Shown here in pieces: positions 12,088 through 35,270 of a stretch of 64,000 nt of DNA. Within the stretch, counting starts at the first letter, position 1. The number at the start of each line of letters is the position of its first letter. A model generated the notes under the pieces. It saw only the letters and a list, made by a program, of their open reading frames with translations, did not search any database and had not been told where the DNA came from. The stretch is from Escherichia coli (GTDB lineage Bacteria > Pseudomonadota > Gammaproteobacteria > Enterobacterales > Enterobacteriaceae): the NCBI RefSeq assembly GCF_013122565.1, contig NZ_CP053258.1; one strand, written 5' to 3'. The translations under genes and the position numbers were made by a program.

Positions 12088-12754
12088 TCCTTCCTCAATC
12101 TTGAGTAACCCCGTCGTTGCAGGGTTACTCAATTCGTCCTGATTATACGCACTGTCATGGTGCAATTGCTTCAAATTAAAACTCTGGTCTGACTTCAAAT
12201 AATTATCATATTATTTATCTGCGTAACGGGATACCAGAAAAAATATTTACCCTATTAATTTATTAGGATGTTTACATCGGATTTTTGATTAAGCGTGGTA
12301 TTATTTATTAGCGAAACGTTTCTCTCTTGATTTTTTTACTCATTCATCAATTTTTCTTATTTTAAATTTACAATACCTTTGGGATTGACTTCTCTTTGGG
12401 GTAATTGATAGCCGTTAACTGCCTGTTTTATGAGAAAAAGTAATATAACTTTTTATTCATTGCATAGCAGAAAATGTGATATTGCACGCACTATGTAATA
12501 ACTTCTCCCACTGGCCTGGAACAACTGAACTTATTGAACTATGTTAGAAAATACGCCAGTTTAAGTATCTGTCTGAACTGGCAAGGTTAAGCACAATGAT
12601 ATATCGGCGCGTATTCCGTTGCATAAGTGTGCAAAAAAAGTGGAAGACGTATCGAGATTTGTGCGTCTGATCGAGACATGTTTAAAAATGGCTTGCCATA
12701 ATTAACGTTGTATGTGATAACAGATTTCGGGTTAAACGAGGTACAGTTCTGTTT

Positions 12755-12898
12755 ATGTGTGGCATTTTCAGTAAAGAAGTCCTGAGTAAACACGTTGACG
12801 TTGAATACCGCTTCTCTGCCGAGCCTTATATTGGTGCCTCATGCAGTAATGTGTCAGTTTTATCTATGTTATGCCTGCGGGCGAAGAAAACAATCTAA
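12755..12898 (+). CDS. yobF: Small protein YobF, 47 aa, co-transcribed with cspC
   Basis: ATG at 12755 translates to [47 protein letters not shown]; stop 12 nt before the cspC start. Below the ORF-track size cutoff. Confidence 0.85.
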
Positions 12899-12910
12899 GG
12901 AATTTTTCAA

Positions 12911-13120
12911 ATGGCAAAGATTAAAGGTCAGGTTAAGTGGTTCAACGAGTCTAAAGGTTTTGGCTTCATTACTCCGGCTGATGGCAGCAAAGACGTGTTC
13001 GTACACTTCTCTGCTATCCAGGGTAATGGCTTCAAAACTCTGGCTGAAGGTCAGAACGTTGAGTTCGAAATTCAGGACGGCCAGAAAGGTCCGGCAGCTG
13101 TTAACGTAACAGCTATCTGA
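12911..13120 (+). CDS. cspC: Cold-shock-family protein CspC
   Basis: 69-aa [40 protein letters not shown] with RNP1/RNP2 cold-shock motifs. Confidence 0.95.
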
Positions 13121-13166
13121 TCGAATCCACTGATCTGAAGTGTGAATACGCTTCAATCTCGCTATA

Positions 13167-13193
13167 AAGCCTCGTCGAATGCGAGGCTTTTTA
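13167..13193 (+). terminator. Rho-independent terminator downstream of cspC
   Basis: Stem gcctcg / cgaggc with 7-nt loop followed by a T5 run. Confidence 0.65.
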
Positions 13194-13285
13194 CTTTGCT
13201 TTATCTTCGCTCCAGTCGTTCGGATATTTGCCCGCCGCGTGATTCGCGTTACACTTGCGGCCTTTAGTATCCTGCCGGAGTTGTC

Positions 13286-26214: not shown

Positions 26215-26635
26215 ATTCTTATCCTTAAAATTAACCATGTTATCGATAAGGCTATATATGACCTTAATTTGCATCTAATATCAAAGGGATTATAACGATA
26301 TGGCACGAGTTAACCTGTTGACATTCAGGTGTTTTAAAGGTAGCAGCTCATGGTGTGTTATCCAGTAAGATGGAGAAAATTAACGGTCAGTCCGCACGCT
26401 ATAACCAGATTGTTCAGCTAAGAAAGAAAACCAGAGTTGCTAATCAAAGGGCGAACACAACGGCATAGTTATGTTTATTTATATAGTTAGTTTTATAGAT
26501 AAAATTGAAATTATAAAAATAAATAATGAATTAGCAGAAGCATCAACAGTAATATCTTATTCTCTGGTCGATTTATGTAAAACCGACCAGTATTATCGAT
26601 AAATTATCGTCTGACTTATTTTGCTTCGATAAAGC

Positions 26636-26980
26636 TTACACCGCAGCCACAATCTTAATTTCAACTTTATACTTCGGGTTCATCAAACCCGCTTGTACCG
26701 TGCAGCGCACCGGCGCATGACCCGCGACAACCCAGGCATCCCACGCTTTATTCATCGCCGCGAAGTCGTTTTTATCGGCCAGGAAAATGGTGGCATCCAG
26801 AATGCTCGATTTATTGCTGCCCTGTTTTTCCAGCACGGCGTCAATCTGCGCCAGCGTGTTGGCGGTTTGCTCAAAGGCATCGGCGTCGAGGTTTTCCGGT
26901 ACACCAGTGTAGTAGAGCGTGTTGTTGTGGATTACTACATCAGACCAGCGGGCTTCAGCATCGATACGAACGATAGTCAT
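26636..26980 (-). CDS. yoaB: RidA/YjgF-family protein YoaB
   Basis: ORF 26636-27028; start trimmed to MTIVRIDAEARWSDVVIHNN (114 aa). Confidence 0.85.
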   Translation of the reverse strand: MTIVRIDAEARWSDVVIHNNTLYYTGVPENLDADAFEQTANTLAQIDAVLEKQGSNKSSILDATIFLADKNDFAAMNKAWDAWVVAGHAPVRCTVQAGLMNPKYKVEIKIVAAV

Positions 26981-27087
26981 CATTTTGTCCTCATTATACT
27001 TCCATTTTCGTGCTGCAAAGACTGCCACAATGTGAGGTCGCCGTCATCACTTCAACTGGCGAAAGCGCCCTCATCCTGACATAATCC

Positions 27088-27103
27088 CTGTTCAAATCAA
27101 CAG
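27088..27103 (+). promoter_or_regulatory. LexA (SOS) box upstream of yoaA
   Basis: Exact CTGT-N8-ACAG (CTGTtcaaatcaACAG), 9 nt upstream of the yoaA GTG start, with a CATAAT -10-like hexamer at 27080-27085. Confidence 0.55.
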
Positions 27104-27111
27104 GGGGTAGT

Positions 27112-29022
27112 GTGACGGACGATTTTGCACCAGACGGTCAGCTGGCGAAAGCGATACCAGGCTTTAAGCCGCGAGAACCACAGCGACAGATGGCGGTAGC
27201 CGTCACCCAGGCGATAGAAAAAGGCCAGCCGCTAGTGGTGGAAGCAGGAACCGGTACGGGCAAAACCTACGCTTACCTGGCCCCTGCGCTGCGGGCGAAA
27301 AAGAAAGTCATTATCTCGACCGGCTCAAAAGCGTTGCAGGATCAGCTCTACAGCCGCGATTTGCCAACGGTCTCAAAGGCGTTGAAATACACGGGCAACG
27401 TGGCGTTGCTGAAAGGGCGCTCAAACTATCTCTGCCTCGAACGTCTCGAACAGCAGGCGCTGGCGGGCGGCGATCTGCCGGTACAAATCTTAAGCGATGT
27501 GATCCTCCTGCGCTCCTGGTCCAATCAAACAGTCGATGGCGATATCAGCACCTGCGTCAGCGTGGCGGAAGATTCGCAGGCGTGGCCGCTGGTCACCAGC
27601 ACCAACGACAACTGTCTTGGCAGCGACTGCCCGATGTATAAAGATTGCTTTGTGGTCAAAGCACGTAAAAAAGCGATGGACGCCGATGTGGTGGTGGTAA
27701 ACCATCATCTCTTTCTGGCGGATATGGTGGTTAAAGAGAGTGGATTTGGCGAGTTGATCCCGGAAGCGGACGTCATGATCTTCGACGAAGCCCACCAGCT
27801 ACCGGACATTGCCAGCCAGTATTTTGGTCAGTCACTCTCCAGTCGACAACTGCTCGACCTGGCAAAAGACATCACCATCGCCTACCGCACCGAATTAAAA
27901 GACACCCAGCAGTTACAAAAGTGCGCTGATCGTCTTGCCCAGAGTGCGCAGGATTTTCGTCTGCAACTCGGTGAACCAGGTTATCGCGGTAACCTGCGTG
28001 AGCTGTTAGCTAATCCGCAAATTCAGCGGGCATTTTTACTGCTCGATGACACCCTGGAACTTTGTTATGACGTGGCGAAACTGTCACTGGGGCGTTCCGC
28101 GTTGCTGGATGCGGCATTTGAACGCGCCACGTTATATCGCACGCGACTCAAACGGCTAAAAGAGATCAATCAACCGGGCTATAGCTATTGGTACGAATGC
28201 ACTTCGCGCCATTTTACTCTGGCTCTCACACCGCTCAGCGTGGCGGATAAATTCAAAGAGTTAATGGCGCAAAAACCAGGTAGCTGGATCTTTACCTCAG
28301 CAACGCTGTCGGTGAACGACGATCTGCATCATTTCACCTCGCGACTTGGCATCGAACAGGCAGAGTCGTTGCTGTTACCCAGCCCCTTTGATTACAGCCG
28401 TCAGGCGTTACTCTGTGTGCCGCGCAACCTGCCGCAAACCAATCAACCGGGCTCCGCACGGCAACTGGCGGCAATGCTGCGACCGATCATCGAAGCTAAC
28501 AACGGTCGTTGTTTTATGCTTTGTACCTCGCACGCCATGATGCGCGATCTGGCCGAGCAGTTCCGCGCCACCATGACGCTTCCCGTTTTGTTGCAGGGGG
28601 AAACTAGCAAAGGGCAACTGTTGCAGCAATTTGTCAGCGCCGGTAACGCGCTTCTTGTGGCAACCAGTAGTTTCTGGGAAGGGGTGGACGTGCGTGGCGA
28701 TACATTGTCATTGGTGATTATCGACAAATTGCCGTTTACCTCGCCGGATGATCCACTGTTAAAAGCGCGCATGGAAGATTGCCGTTTGCGTGGTGGTGAC
28801 CCGTTCGATGAAGTGCAGCTGCCGGATGCGGTCATTACTCTCAAGCAGGGAGTAGGGCGACTGATTCGCGACGCCGACGATCGCGGGGTTTTGGTGATTT
28901 GTGACAATCGGCTGGTGATGCGCCCTTACGGCGCGACGTTTCTCGCCAGTCTGCCGCCAGCGCCGCGCACCCGTGACATTGCCCGTGCGGTTCGTTTCCT
29001 TGCGATACCATCCTCCAGGTAA
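27112..29022 (+). CDS. yoaA: DinG-family ATP-dependent DNA helicase YoaA
   Basis: 636-aa ORF starting (GTG) MTDDFAPDGQLAKAIPGFKPREPQRQMAV, with Walker A AGTGTGKT. Confidence 0.9.
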   Translation: MTDDFAPDGQLAKAIPGFKPREPQRQMAVAVTQAIEKGQPLVVEAGTGTGKTYAYLAPALRAKKKVIISTGSKALQDQLYSRDLPTVSKALKYTGNVALLKGRSNYLCLERLEQQALAGGDLPVQILSDVILLRSWSNQTVDGDISTCVSVAEDSQAWPLVTSTNDNCLGSDCPMYKDCFVVKARKKAMDADVVVVNHHLFLADMVVKESGFGELIPEADVMIFDEAHQLPDIASQYFGQSLSSRQLLDLAKDITIAYRTELKDTQQLQKCADRLAQSAQDFRLQLGEPGYRGNLRELLANPQIQRAFLLLDDTLELCYDVAKLSLGRSALLDAAFERATLYRTRLKRLKEINQPGYSYWYECTSRHFTLALTPLSVADKFKELMAQKPGSWIFTSATLSVNDDLHHFTSRLGIEQAESLLLPSPFDYSRQALLCVPRNLPQTNQPGSARQLAAMLRPIIEANNGRCFMLCTSHAMMRDLAEQFRATMTLPVLLQGETSKGQLLQQFVSAGNALLVATSSFWEGVDVRGDTLSLVIIDKLPFTSPDDPLLKARMEDCRLRGGDPFDEVQLPDAVITLKQGVGRLIRDADDRGVLVICDNRLVMRPYGATFLASLPPAPRTRDIARAVRFLAIPSSR

Positions 29023-30600: not shown

Positions 30601-32286
30601 TTGAAGAAGGTTTGGCTTAACCGTTATCCCGCGGACGTTCCGACGGAGATCAACCCTGACCGTTATCAATCTCTGGTAGATATGTTTGAGCAGTCGGTCG
30701 CGCGCTACGCCGATCAGCCTGCGTTTGTGAATATGGGGGAGGTGATGACCTTCCGCAAGCTGGAAGAACGCAGTCGCGCGTTTGCCGCTTATTTGCAACA
30801 AGGGTTGGGGCTGAAGAAAGGCGATCGCGTTGCGTTGATGATGCCTAACTTATTGCAATATCCGGTGGCGCTGTTTGGCATTTTGCGTGCCGGGATGATC
30901 GTCGTAAACGTTAACCCGTTATATACCCCGCGAGAGCTTGAGCATCAGCTTAACGATAGCGGCGCATCGGCGATTGTTATCGTGTCTAACTTTGCTCACA
31001 CACTGGAAAAAGTGGTTGATAAAACCGCCGTTCAGCACGTAATTCTGACCCGTATGGGCGATCAGCTATCTACGGCAAAAGGCACGGTAGTCAATTTCGT
31101 TGTTAAATACATCAAGCGTCTGGTGCCGAAATACCATCTGCCAGATGCCATTTCATTTCGTAGCGCCCTGCATAACGGCTACCGGATGCAGTACGTCAAA
31201 CCCGAACTGGTGCCGGAAGATTTAGCCTTCCTGCAATACACCGGCGGCACCACAGGTGTGGCTAAAGGCGCGATGCTGACTCACCGCAATATGCTGGCGA
31301 ACCTGGAACAGGTCAACGCCACCTATGGGCCGTTGCTGCATCCAGGTAAAGAACTGGTAGTAACGGCGCTGCCGCTGTATCACATTTTTGCCCTGACCAT
31401 TAACTGCCTGCTGTTTATCGAACTGGGTGGGCAGAACCTGCTTATCACTAACCCGCGTGATATTCCAGGGTTGGTAAAAGAGTTAGCGAAATATCCGTTT
31501 ACCGCTATCACTGGCGTTAACACCTTGTTCAATGCGTTGCTGAACAATAAAGAGTTCCAGCAGCTGGATTTCTCCAGTCTGCATCTTTCCGCAGGCGGAG
31601 GGATGCCTGTTCAGCAAGTGGTGGCAGAACGTTGGGTGAAACTGACCGGACAGTATCTGCTGGAAGGCTATGGCCTGACCGAGTGTGCGCCGCTGGTCAG
31701 CGTTAACCCGTATGATATTGATTATCATAGTGGCAGCATCGGTTTGCCGGTGCCGTCGACGGAAGCCAAACTGGTGGATGATGATGATAATGAAGTACCA
31801 CCGGGTCAACCGGGTGAGCTTTGTGTCAAAGGACCGCAGGTGATGCTGGGTTACTGGCAGCGTCCGGATGCTACAGATGAGATCATCAAAAATGGCTGGT
31901 TACACACCGGCGACATCGCGGTAATGGATGAAGAAGGATTCCTGCGCATTGTCGATCGTAAAAAAGATATGATTCTGGTTTCCGGTTTTAACGTCTATCC
32001 TAACGAGATTGAAGATGTCGTCATGCAGCATCCTGGCGTACAAGAAGTCGCGGCTGTTGGCGTACCTTCCGGCTCCAGTGGTGAAGCGGTAAAAATCTTT
32101 GTAGTGAAAAAAGATCCATCGCTTACCGAAGAGTCACTGGTGACTTTTTGCCGCCGTCAGCTCACGGGCTACAAAGTACCGAAGCTGGTGGAGTTTCGTG
32201 ATGAGTTACCGAAATCTAACGTCGGAAAAATTTTGCGACGAGAATTACGTGACGAAGCGCGCGGCAAAGTGGACAATAAAGCCTGA
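30601..32286 (+). CDS. fadD: Long-chain-fatty-acid-CoA ligase FadD
   Basis: ORF 30535-32286; start trimmed to TTG at 30601 ([23 protein letters not shown]), 561 aa, AMP-binding motifs. Confidence 0.9.
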
Positions 32287-32305
32287 GCGTTAAGTCAGTC
32301 GTCAG

Positions 32306-32331
32306 ACGCCGGTTAATCCGGCGTTTTTTTT
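32306..32331 (+). terminator. Rho-independent terminator downstream of fadD
   Basis: Stem acgccgg / ccggcgt with ttaat loop followed by a T8 run. Confidence 0.7.
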
Positions 32332-33536: not shown

Positions 33537-33950
33537 CTACAAATCCAACACCAGGCGTTTACCCTTCGCACGCGAACAACAGATCAACATACTTTGCTGG
33601 CTGGCACGCTCTTCATCGCTAAAATACTGATCCCGATGGTCAGCTTCACCTTCCAGTATTGCCGTTTCGCAGGTTCCGCATACCCCTTCACGACATAAAC
33701 ATTCCACTTTCGCGGCTTTATTATTTTCAATAACCTGCAAAATAGTCATCTCTTCCGGCACCACAAACTCTTTTCCGGAACGGGCAAGCACCAGGGTAAA
33801 TGCATCGCCGGTTTTGTCTTCGATAGCAAATTGCTCAAAGTGCAGCGTATCGGCGGCGATGTCCAGACGCGCAGCTTCACTTCTTACCGCTTCAATTAGC
33901 GCCTCGGGGCCACAGGTATAAACGTGTGTGCCAGGTTCGATATCCGCCAT
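33537..33950 (-). pseudogene. yeaX: 3' fragment of yeaX (cntB-like oxidoreductase): end of NAD-binding domain plus plant-type 2Fe-2S ferredoxin domain
   Basis: ORF 33537-34016 (159 aa). From MADIEPGTHVYTCGPEALIEAVRSEAARL onward it looks like the C-terminus of an FNR-type reductase followed by a 2Fe-2S domain (CREGVCGTCE ... LICC). The N-terminal FAD/FMN-binding domain is absent and yeaW/yeaV are not found upstream. Confidence 0.6.
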
Positions 33951-33992
33951 TGACATCCTCCACGTCCTGAAGGACGAGGAGGATGTCAATGG
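33947..33992. repeat. 46-bp near-perfect palindrome at the 5' edge of the yeaX fragment
   Basis: ccattgacatcctccacgtcc-tgaa-ggacgaggaggatgtcaatgg: two 21-nt arms with one mismatch. The minus-strand reading of the left arm gives GGAGG, 6 nt spacer, ATG (the MADIEPG start). Confidence 0.85.
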
Positions 33993-34136
33993 CAGGGTAT
34001 GAGTTGTATATTGCATTTAACGAATTAATTATTTTTGTGTTATATAAATTAAACAATTAAGAATTCGGAAAGCCATAAAACACGAAACGGAAACAATAAA
34101 AGGTGAAATGACGCAGGTTATTAACTGCAAAGAACG

Positions 34137-34165
34137 AATAAAAAAACCGCGTCAGTGACGCGGTT
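34137..34165 (-). terminator. Rho-independent terminator downstream of dmlA
   Basis: Stem aaccgcg / cgcggtt preceded on the plus strand by an A-run, giving a U-run after the hairpin on the minus strand; 20 nt past the dmlA stop. Confidence 0.6.
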
Positions 34166-34184
34166 CAAATAAACTGGTTTGACC

Positions 34185-35270
34185 TTAACGCAAAATAATT
34201 TTGCAAATCGCGTCGGCAACCTGTGGCGTGGTGGCACTGCCTTTCATATCCGGTGTTTTCGGCCCGTGAGCAATCACTTCTTCAATCGCTGCCAGAATAC
34301 CGTTATGCGCTTGCTGGAAACGCTCATCGCCATTGCCGAGAAAATCGAGCATCATTGCACCGGCCCAAATTGTGGCGATAGGGTTAGCAATATTTTTCCC
34401 GTAGATATCCGGCGCGGAACCGTGGACAGGCTCGAAGAGCGACGGGAAAGTGCGTTCCGGATTCAGGTTGGCGGATGGGGCAATGCCAATGGTGCCGGTG
34501 CAGGCCGGGCCAAGATCGGAAAGGATATCGCCAAACAAATTGGACGCCACTACCACATCGAAGCGTTCCGGCTGCATCACAAAACGCGCGCAGAGAATAT
34601 CAATATGCTGCTTGTCCCACCGGATCTCCGGATAATTCTCGGCCATTGCTTCCACTCGCTCATCCCAGTACGGCATGCTGATGGCTAAACCGTTCGATTT
34701 AGTGGCAGAAGTTAGTGTCTTACGTGGGCGGCTTTGCGCAAGTTCGAAGGCATAACGCAAAATGCGATCGACACCACGACGCGTAAATACCGATTCCTGA
34801 ATGACGACTTCATGCTCTGTACCTTCATTCACTCTACCGCCGAGCGAGGAATATTCGCCTTCGGTGTTTTCCCTGACCACGTAAAAATCGATGTCGCCAG
34901 GCTGTTTTCCCGCCAGCGGGCAGGGAACGCCAGGAAAGAGACGAACCGGGCGCAGATTGACGTACTGGTCGAATTCACGACGAAATTTCAGCAGCGAACC
35001 CCACAACGAAATATGGTCCGGAACGGTATCCGGCCAGCCGACGGCACCAAAATAGATGGCGTCGAAACGGCTAAGTTGCTCATGCCAGTCGTCCGGCATC
35101 ATTTTACCGTGATGGCTGTAATACTCGCAGCTCGCCCACTCCATTTGCTCAAAACTCAAGGCGAAGCCCCAGCGCTCAGCGGCAGCCTGTAACACGCGAA
35201 TCCCTTCAGGAAGGACTTCTTTGCCAATCCCGTCTCCCGGGATCGCAGCAATACGCATCGTTTTCATCAT
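34185..35270 (-). CDS. dmlA: D-malate dehydrogenase (decarboxylating) DmlA (YeaU)
   Basis: 361-aa ORF starting MMKTMRIAAIPGDGIGKEVLPEG, isocitrate/isopropylmalate dehydrogenase family. Confidence 0.9.
   Translation of the reverse strand: MMKTMRIAAIPGDGIGKEVLPEGIRVLQAAAERWGFALSFEQMEWASCEYYSHHGKMMPDDWHEQLSRFDAIYFGAVGWPDTVPDHISLWGSLLKFRREFDQYVNLRPVRLFPGVPCPLAGKQPGDIDFYVVRENTEGEYSSLGGRVNEGTEHEVVIQESVFTRRGVDRILRYAFELAQSRPRKTLTSATKSNGLAISMPYWDERVEAMAENYPEIRWDKQHIDILCARFVMQPERFDVVVASNLFGDILSDLGPACTGTIGIAPSANLNPERTFPSLFEPVHGSAPDIYGKNIANPIATIWAGAMMLDFLGNGDERFQQAHNGILAAIEEVIAHGPKTPDMKGSATTPQVADAICKIILR

Follow-up and report, generated by a model that had tools for sequence, protein, structure and literature searches.

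The stretch of DNA analysed here, called the window, comprises 64,000 nucleotides of an Escherichia coli genome. It is colinear with E. coli strain GF43 in the gene order rsmF...yoaB-yoaA-tsaB-fadD... GF43 is the best complete-genome match of the window, with an overall identity of about 98%, and the differences within yoaA are found chiefly at third codon positions. Downstream of the element under study lies an open reading frame of 636 aa with a GTG start at 27112 (27112-29022, + strand). Based on the reading frame itself, NCBIfam and the RefSeq annotation of colinear E. coli records, it was identified as yoaA, which encodes a Fe-S helicase of the DinG/XPD family. Together with the clamp-loader subunit chi (HolC), YoaA clears blocked 3′ ends at replication gaps. 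The product of the reading frame matches NCBIfam model NF053712, the repair_DEAH_YoaA equivalog, with 922.5 bits (E = 1.5e-277, cutoff 680). A 1-kb stretch around the element has a match in 5424 of 5426 complete E. coli genomes, where RefSeq annotates yoaB and yoaA. A preliminary description, made from the sequence alone, had taken the downstream gene for that of a DinG-like helicase, which is borne out by the NF053712 match and this annotation.

The element itself, CTGTTCAAATCAACAG, reads CTGT-N8-ACAG and occupies 27088-27103, exactly the coordinates that the preliminary description had given; it contains the invariant LexA core CTG-N10-CAG. The order in the window is cataat (27080-27085), cc, CTGT (27088-27091), tcaaatca, ACAG (27100-27103), ggggtagt and the GTG at 27112. 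The box and the GTG are separated by 8 nt, the GTG being 9 nt from the last base of the box, and another 2 nt separate the CATAAT hexamer from the box, both in accordance with the earlier placement of the box 9 nt upstream of the yoaA start and just downstream of a -10-like hexamer. The palindrome is longer by one pair on each side, i.e., CCCTGT...ACAGGG, and the full 20-bp LexA operator, CCCTGTTCAAATCAACAGGG, spans 27086-27105. Its assignment is based on the core at 27088-27103, on conservation, and on published mutagenesis and lexA3 data, all discussed below.

The operator is embedded in what appears to be an extended -10 promoter. The sequence TGaCATAAT (27077-27085, + strand) resembles the sigma-70 consensus TGnTATAAT, which suggests its role as the -10 of the yoaA promoter, and TGACATAAT is invariant. 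At a spacer of 18 nt, CTGGCG (27056-27061, + strand) is a putative weak -35 as judged from spacing, the TGG of which is invariant in an alignment of 26 genus-level representatives. The poor quality of this putative -35 would fit a promoter that depends on its extended -10. A strict sigma-70 consensus scan of 26900-27200 found no promoter and did not pick up the putative -35. This null result was not taken to mean that there is no promoter, since this one would combine an extended -10 with a poor -35. With the promoter assigned in this way from sequence and conservation, the box abuts it directly, starting 2 nt past TGaCATAAT and ending 9 nt ahead of the start codon. A Shine–Dalgarno-like GGGGG (27103-27107, + strand), 4-8 nt before the GTG, overlaps the operator at its right edge and presumably functions in ribosome binding; the region is kept as CAGGGGG in most genera. 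A search of the yoaB-yoaA intergenic region against Rfam yielded no RNA family.

The SOS box of yoaA has been described before, with experimental support. Sutera et al. (2021, J Bacteriol; PMC8378479) fused the 132-bp upstream, intergenic region of yoaA to luxCDABE and found that azidothymidine (AZT) induces the fusion. Most of this induction, and especially its early phase, is abolished by lexA3, which specifies a non-cleavable LexA (PMC8378479). Mutation of the box, given as CTG-N10-CAG with TTCAAATCAA as N10 at "position -24", results in high constitutive expression without further AZT induction (PMC8378479). In this mutant, CCCTG is changed to GTCCC and CAGGG to GGGAC relative to the MG1655 wild type. 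The MG1655 box, at about 1,893,244-1,893,259 of that genome, has the same N10 and the same -24 position as the one in the window, the element itself being without differences, and the flanks of the mutagenic primers match the window exactly at 27065-27085 and 27106-27120. The -35 region, the -10, the box, the Shine–Dalgarno region and the GTG start are base-for-base identical between the window and K-12 MG1655, the single intergenic difference being 27047, which is T in the window strain and C in K-12. The LexA dependence of yoaA and the requirement for the box are known from literature; the present analysis shows that the window is identical in sequence to the K-12 site that had been tested, and that the site is conserved. 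Since the lexA3 and box-mutant data were obtained with an identical box, they support the likely SOS control that had been proposed for the window.

In a 2024 RNA-seq study that revisited the SOS response, yoaA is listed in Table 1 among the classical SOS genes, with a 4.0-fold induction by AZT and a 1.6-fold lexA dependence (PMC11228462). The same table credits Courcelle et al. (2001) with the heterology index (HI) of yoaA, which at 13 is as high as that of polB, whose operator is the weakest of those accepted there. Low-dose ciprofloxacin induces yoaA fast (at 10 min) but weakly, with a log2 change of approximately 0.5-0.7 at 10-50 min, after which expression falls, unlike that of most SOS genes (PMC11002266). 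A 2025 review gives the LexA control of yoaA as a fact (PMC11981726). Among 20 papers naming both yoaA and LexA, none was found to report direct binding of LexA at the yoaA box by EMSA, footprint or ChIP.

Judged by its sequence, the operator is a poor one. It matches the 20-nt consensus TACTGTATATATATACAGTA (TACTG(TA)5CAGTA) at 11 of 20 positions, the departures being CC/GG flanks rather than TA/TA and a spacer without alternating TA. A weaker operator had been anticipated in the preliminary description, in agreement with the published HI of 13 (PMC11228462) and with our own HI-like score of 15.35. However, the reason offered for it, an AT-poor spacer, is wrong, as tcaaatca has A/T at 6 of 8 positions and the N10 at 8 of 10. 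The HI-like matrix was built from the 18 published LexA boxes tabulated in PMC3009722, and these reference sites were scored leave-one-out; all 18 are better than the yoaA 20-mer, with scores of at most 12.8. In the window, 29 of 127,962 positions score as well as or better than the yoaA box, which the matrix places only 29th. The better-scoring positions are without a CTG or CAG core and are found within the AT-rich stretch 26215-26635 or inside genes; they were dismissed. With nothing but a position weight matrix, the yoaA site would be missed. The preliminary description had suggested such scoring and held that a low score combined with expression that does not depend on LexA would speak against SOS control; the score is indeed low, but LexA dependence is documented, and the SOS interpretation stands.

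The AT-rich stretch just mentioned comprises 420 bp without annotated gene, flanked by the start of yoaC and the stop of yoaB (26215-26635), with a GC content of 24-42%. It contains three partial matches to the LexA matrix (26348-26367, 26469-26488 and 26573-26592), each without a CTG or CAG core, and these are probably compositional artefacts.

The box is also conserved. Within E. coli, at least 4842 of 5423 complete genomes carry the stretch 27060-27125 (66 nt) with 100% identity. Beyond the species, a comparative set was compiled with one genome per species from loci encoding close relatives of YoaA, the best 80 of 557 relatives, covering at least 25 genera, all of them Enterobacteriaceae; the 80 upstream regions in which boxes were counted are the 79 loci having upstream sequence plus E. 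coli GF43. In 80 of these 80 regions, CTG-N10-CAG is found 2-3 nt past the invariant TGACATAAT. The boxes comprise 21 distinct orthologous 16-mers, in which variation is confined to the inner part, affecting 9 of its 10 columns but 0 of the 6 core columns (Fisher p = 0.0009). Position 4 is occupied by T or G and position 13 by A or C, with all four combinations represented. This free combination points to the tolerance of LexA, which also accepts the CTGG...CCAG boxes of ruvA and cho (PMC3009722), and not to the requirement of a base-paired stem.

The first base of the box lies 24 nt ahead of the start codon in most genera and 28 nt ahead of it in the Enterobacter group. For the loci in which tblastn put the start farther away (L023, L026/L027 and Atlantibacter), an in-frame GTG, as read by eye, mostly restores the 24 nt. 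All orthologous boxes are weak, with HI-like scores of 9.4-16.6 over 23 variants. In E. coli SCPM-O-B-8794 (L006) and in a Kluyvera locus (L054), the region preceding the -35 has no relation to the yoaB side found otherwise, with TGACATAAT and the box intact. The integrity of the module in these two loci despite their unrelated upstream sequence suggests, at the level of sequence, that core promoter and operator may act as a self-contained unit. What the comparison adds to the known box is that it is kept together with the extended -10 throughout the at least 25 Enterobacteriaceae genera sampled, and always as a weak operator.

Two other operators of the SOS regulon invite comparison. The polB (dinA) operator, GACTGTATAAAACCACAGCC, is like that of yoaA a weak, non-consensus box with an intact CTG-N10-CAG and an HI of approximately 13 (PMC11228462), and in both cases the result is a modest induction of an enzyme for DNA repair or replication restart. 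However, polB retains a TAT/A-rich inner half-site (CTGTATAAAA), whereas yoaA has TTCAAATCAA with G/C flanks, and the HI-like score of yoaA (15.35) is worse than the leave-one-out score of polB (12.6). The dinG operator, TATTGGCTGTTTATACAGTA, is an SOS box in front of the gene of a paralogous Fe-S helicase of the DinG family, and is also weak or atypical, with an HI of 8.6 (PMC11228462). It is asymmetric, having TTG instead of CTG on the left, while yoaA has both triplets but poor flanks and a poor spacer. As the operator sequences of dinG and yoaA are unrelated, the two genes are regulated in parallel and not from a shared ancestral site.

In view of its placement, the published genetics and its conservation, the element is very probably the LexA operator that puts the yoaA promoter under SOS control, and at which a LexA dimer bound to CCCTGTTCAAATCAACAGGG occludes RNA polymerase. 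Such occlusion of RNA polymerase by bound LexA is known at other SOS promoters. A LexA dimer on 27086-27105 would sit directly past the -10 and over the expected transcription start at about 27092-27094, i.e., 7-9 nt after the -10, and would thereby keep RNA polymerase from forming a productive complex; we infer this steric occlusion, as we do the -10, the -35 and the start site. Upon DNA damage or the appearance of replication gaps, RecA-ssDNA filaments would trigger self-cleavage of LexA, the weak operator would be vacated and yoaA would be transcribed. Given the poor match to the consensus, both basal repression and fold induction are expected to be modest, and a weak operator fits the small fold-changes reported. 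This places the YoaA helicase under SOS control, as an established part of the DNA-damage response of E. coli.

That the motif could be a chance occurrence without regulatory role, the damage induction of yoaA being indirect, has to be considered because of the counts in the window. CTGT-N8-ACAG is seen once with 0.65 copies expected, and at least one copy occurs in 53 of 100 shuffles. The broader CTG-N10-CAG occurs at 23 sites in the 64 kb compared to 12.1 in dinucleotide shuffles, none of 100 shuffles reaching 23. Most of the 23 copies lie inside coding sequence and CTG and CAG are common codons, so the excess is probably an effect of codon usage and does not reflect LexA sites. The yoaA box is the best of the 23, although narrowly (15.35 versus 15.89), and its N10 is the most A/T-rich. 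Taken alone, the motif is not above chance in the window; what goes beyond chance is its placement at the promoter and its conservation in orthologues. Its HI-like score beyond the range of the reference operators would fit an accidental match as well, and the many LexA-dependent genes without boxes in PMC11228462 illustrate that indirect effects exist. However, core triplets fixed in all 80 orthologous promoters amid variable inner bases, at a constant place beside the -10, are hardly compatible with accident, and mutation of the box derepresses the promoter (PMC8378479). Conservation and the published mutant together exclude pure chance, and an accidental motif with indirect induction is accordingly extremely improbable.

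The symmetry of the box could alternatively be needed in a hairpin. Instead of, or besides, binding LexA, CCCTGT and ACAGGG would then pair in the mRNA leader or in DNA, and either hide the GGGGG ribosome binding site or pause transcription. A 41-nt stretch can indeed fold into an 8-bp stem that includes the Shine–Dalgarno region, with -11.3 kcal/mol, but this is ordinary for its composition (z = -1.45; 14 of 200 shuffles are as stable). Moreover, a start 7-9 nt past the -10 falls in the left arm, so that the hairpin would not be transcribed as a whole, and for a leader beginning at 27094 the folding energy is only -4.1 kcal/mol. Positions 4 and 13 are without covariation, T/C and G/A combinations being present in 5 of the 21 variants, and the outer C-G pair is missing in most genera, which have CACTG...CAGGG. 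The derepressed box mutant of PMC8378479 still folds equally stably (-11.5 kcal/mol), and the fact that it keeps its hairpin potential argues against a structural explanation. With an ordinary fold, only partial transcription, no covariation and a mutant that retains the hairpin, sequestration of the ribosome binding site was rejected; we give a structural role hardly any credence.

A further alternative leaves LexA binding in place and adds a second factor or promoter acting in the intergenic region, which would account for an induction that is growth-phase dependent and independent of LexA cleavage. In the lexA3 strain, the AZT induction late in growth persists at approximately 30% of the wild type level at 180 min and is reported as unexplained (PMC8378479). 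As part of the AZT induction survives lexA3, LexA cleavage is not the sole input. The fall in yoaA expression after 50 min (PMC11002266) also points in this direction, as does an invariant block, AAGACTGCCAYAWTGT, which was found in 60 of 80 loci and is situated 52 nt upstream of the -10. Such an input may act through this block, or by displacing LexA from its weak operator. However, the block may just as well be the divergent yoaB promoter, and the box mutant lacks further AZT induction (PMC8378479). That a second, so far hypothetical factor or promoter is at work here seems very improbable. A more specific version holds that the operator is kept weak across the Enterobacteriaceae, and that a second input, i.e., a factor or promoter at AAGACTGCCAYAWTGT, relieves LexA repression without cleavage under starvation. 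We regard this as an unlikely, speculative extension of LexA control; if true, the combination of weak operator and second input would explain the lexA3-independent late induction of Sutera et al.

The block AAGACTGCCAYAWTGT occupies 27018-27033 between yoaB and yoaA. On the + strand it contains a second extended -10-like sequence, TGcCAcAAT, and on the - strand a possible -10 for yoaB, CATTGT. Read on the minus strand, 27018-27033 contains TGGCAG...TGCA, but its interpretation as a sigma-54 element was rejected, as the GG-GC spacing, determined by eye, is 8 nt in E. coli and 7 nt in most other genera, and not 10.

Elsewhere in the window, a 42-nt near-perfect palindrome, TTGACATCCTCCACGTCC-TGAA-GGACGAGGAGGATGTCAA-TG, is located at 33950-33991 (context 33700-34250). 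As DNA it can form a hairpin of -26.6 kcal/mol (z = -10.3). At this site, GF43 holds approximately 3.4 kb with the 5′ part of yeaX, and yeaW and yeaV, which specify a carnitine monooxygenase and transporter. The junction at 33950-33991 is spanned by none of the 5426 complete E. coli genomes, and the site has the appearance of a deletion scar filled in with palindromic sequence. Two regions score above the Rfam gathering score. The first (12735-13195; 139.6 bits) is a thermoregulator leader of the cspA type that covers yobF and the cold-shock gene next to it, and the second (32245-32330; 115.2 bits), at the 3′ end of fadD, is the sRNA sroD.
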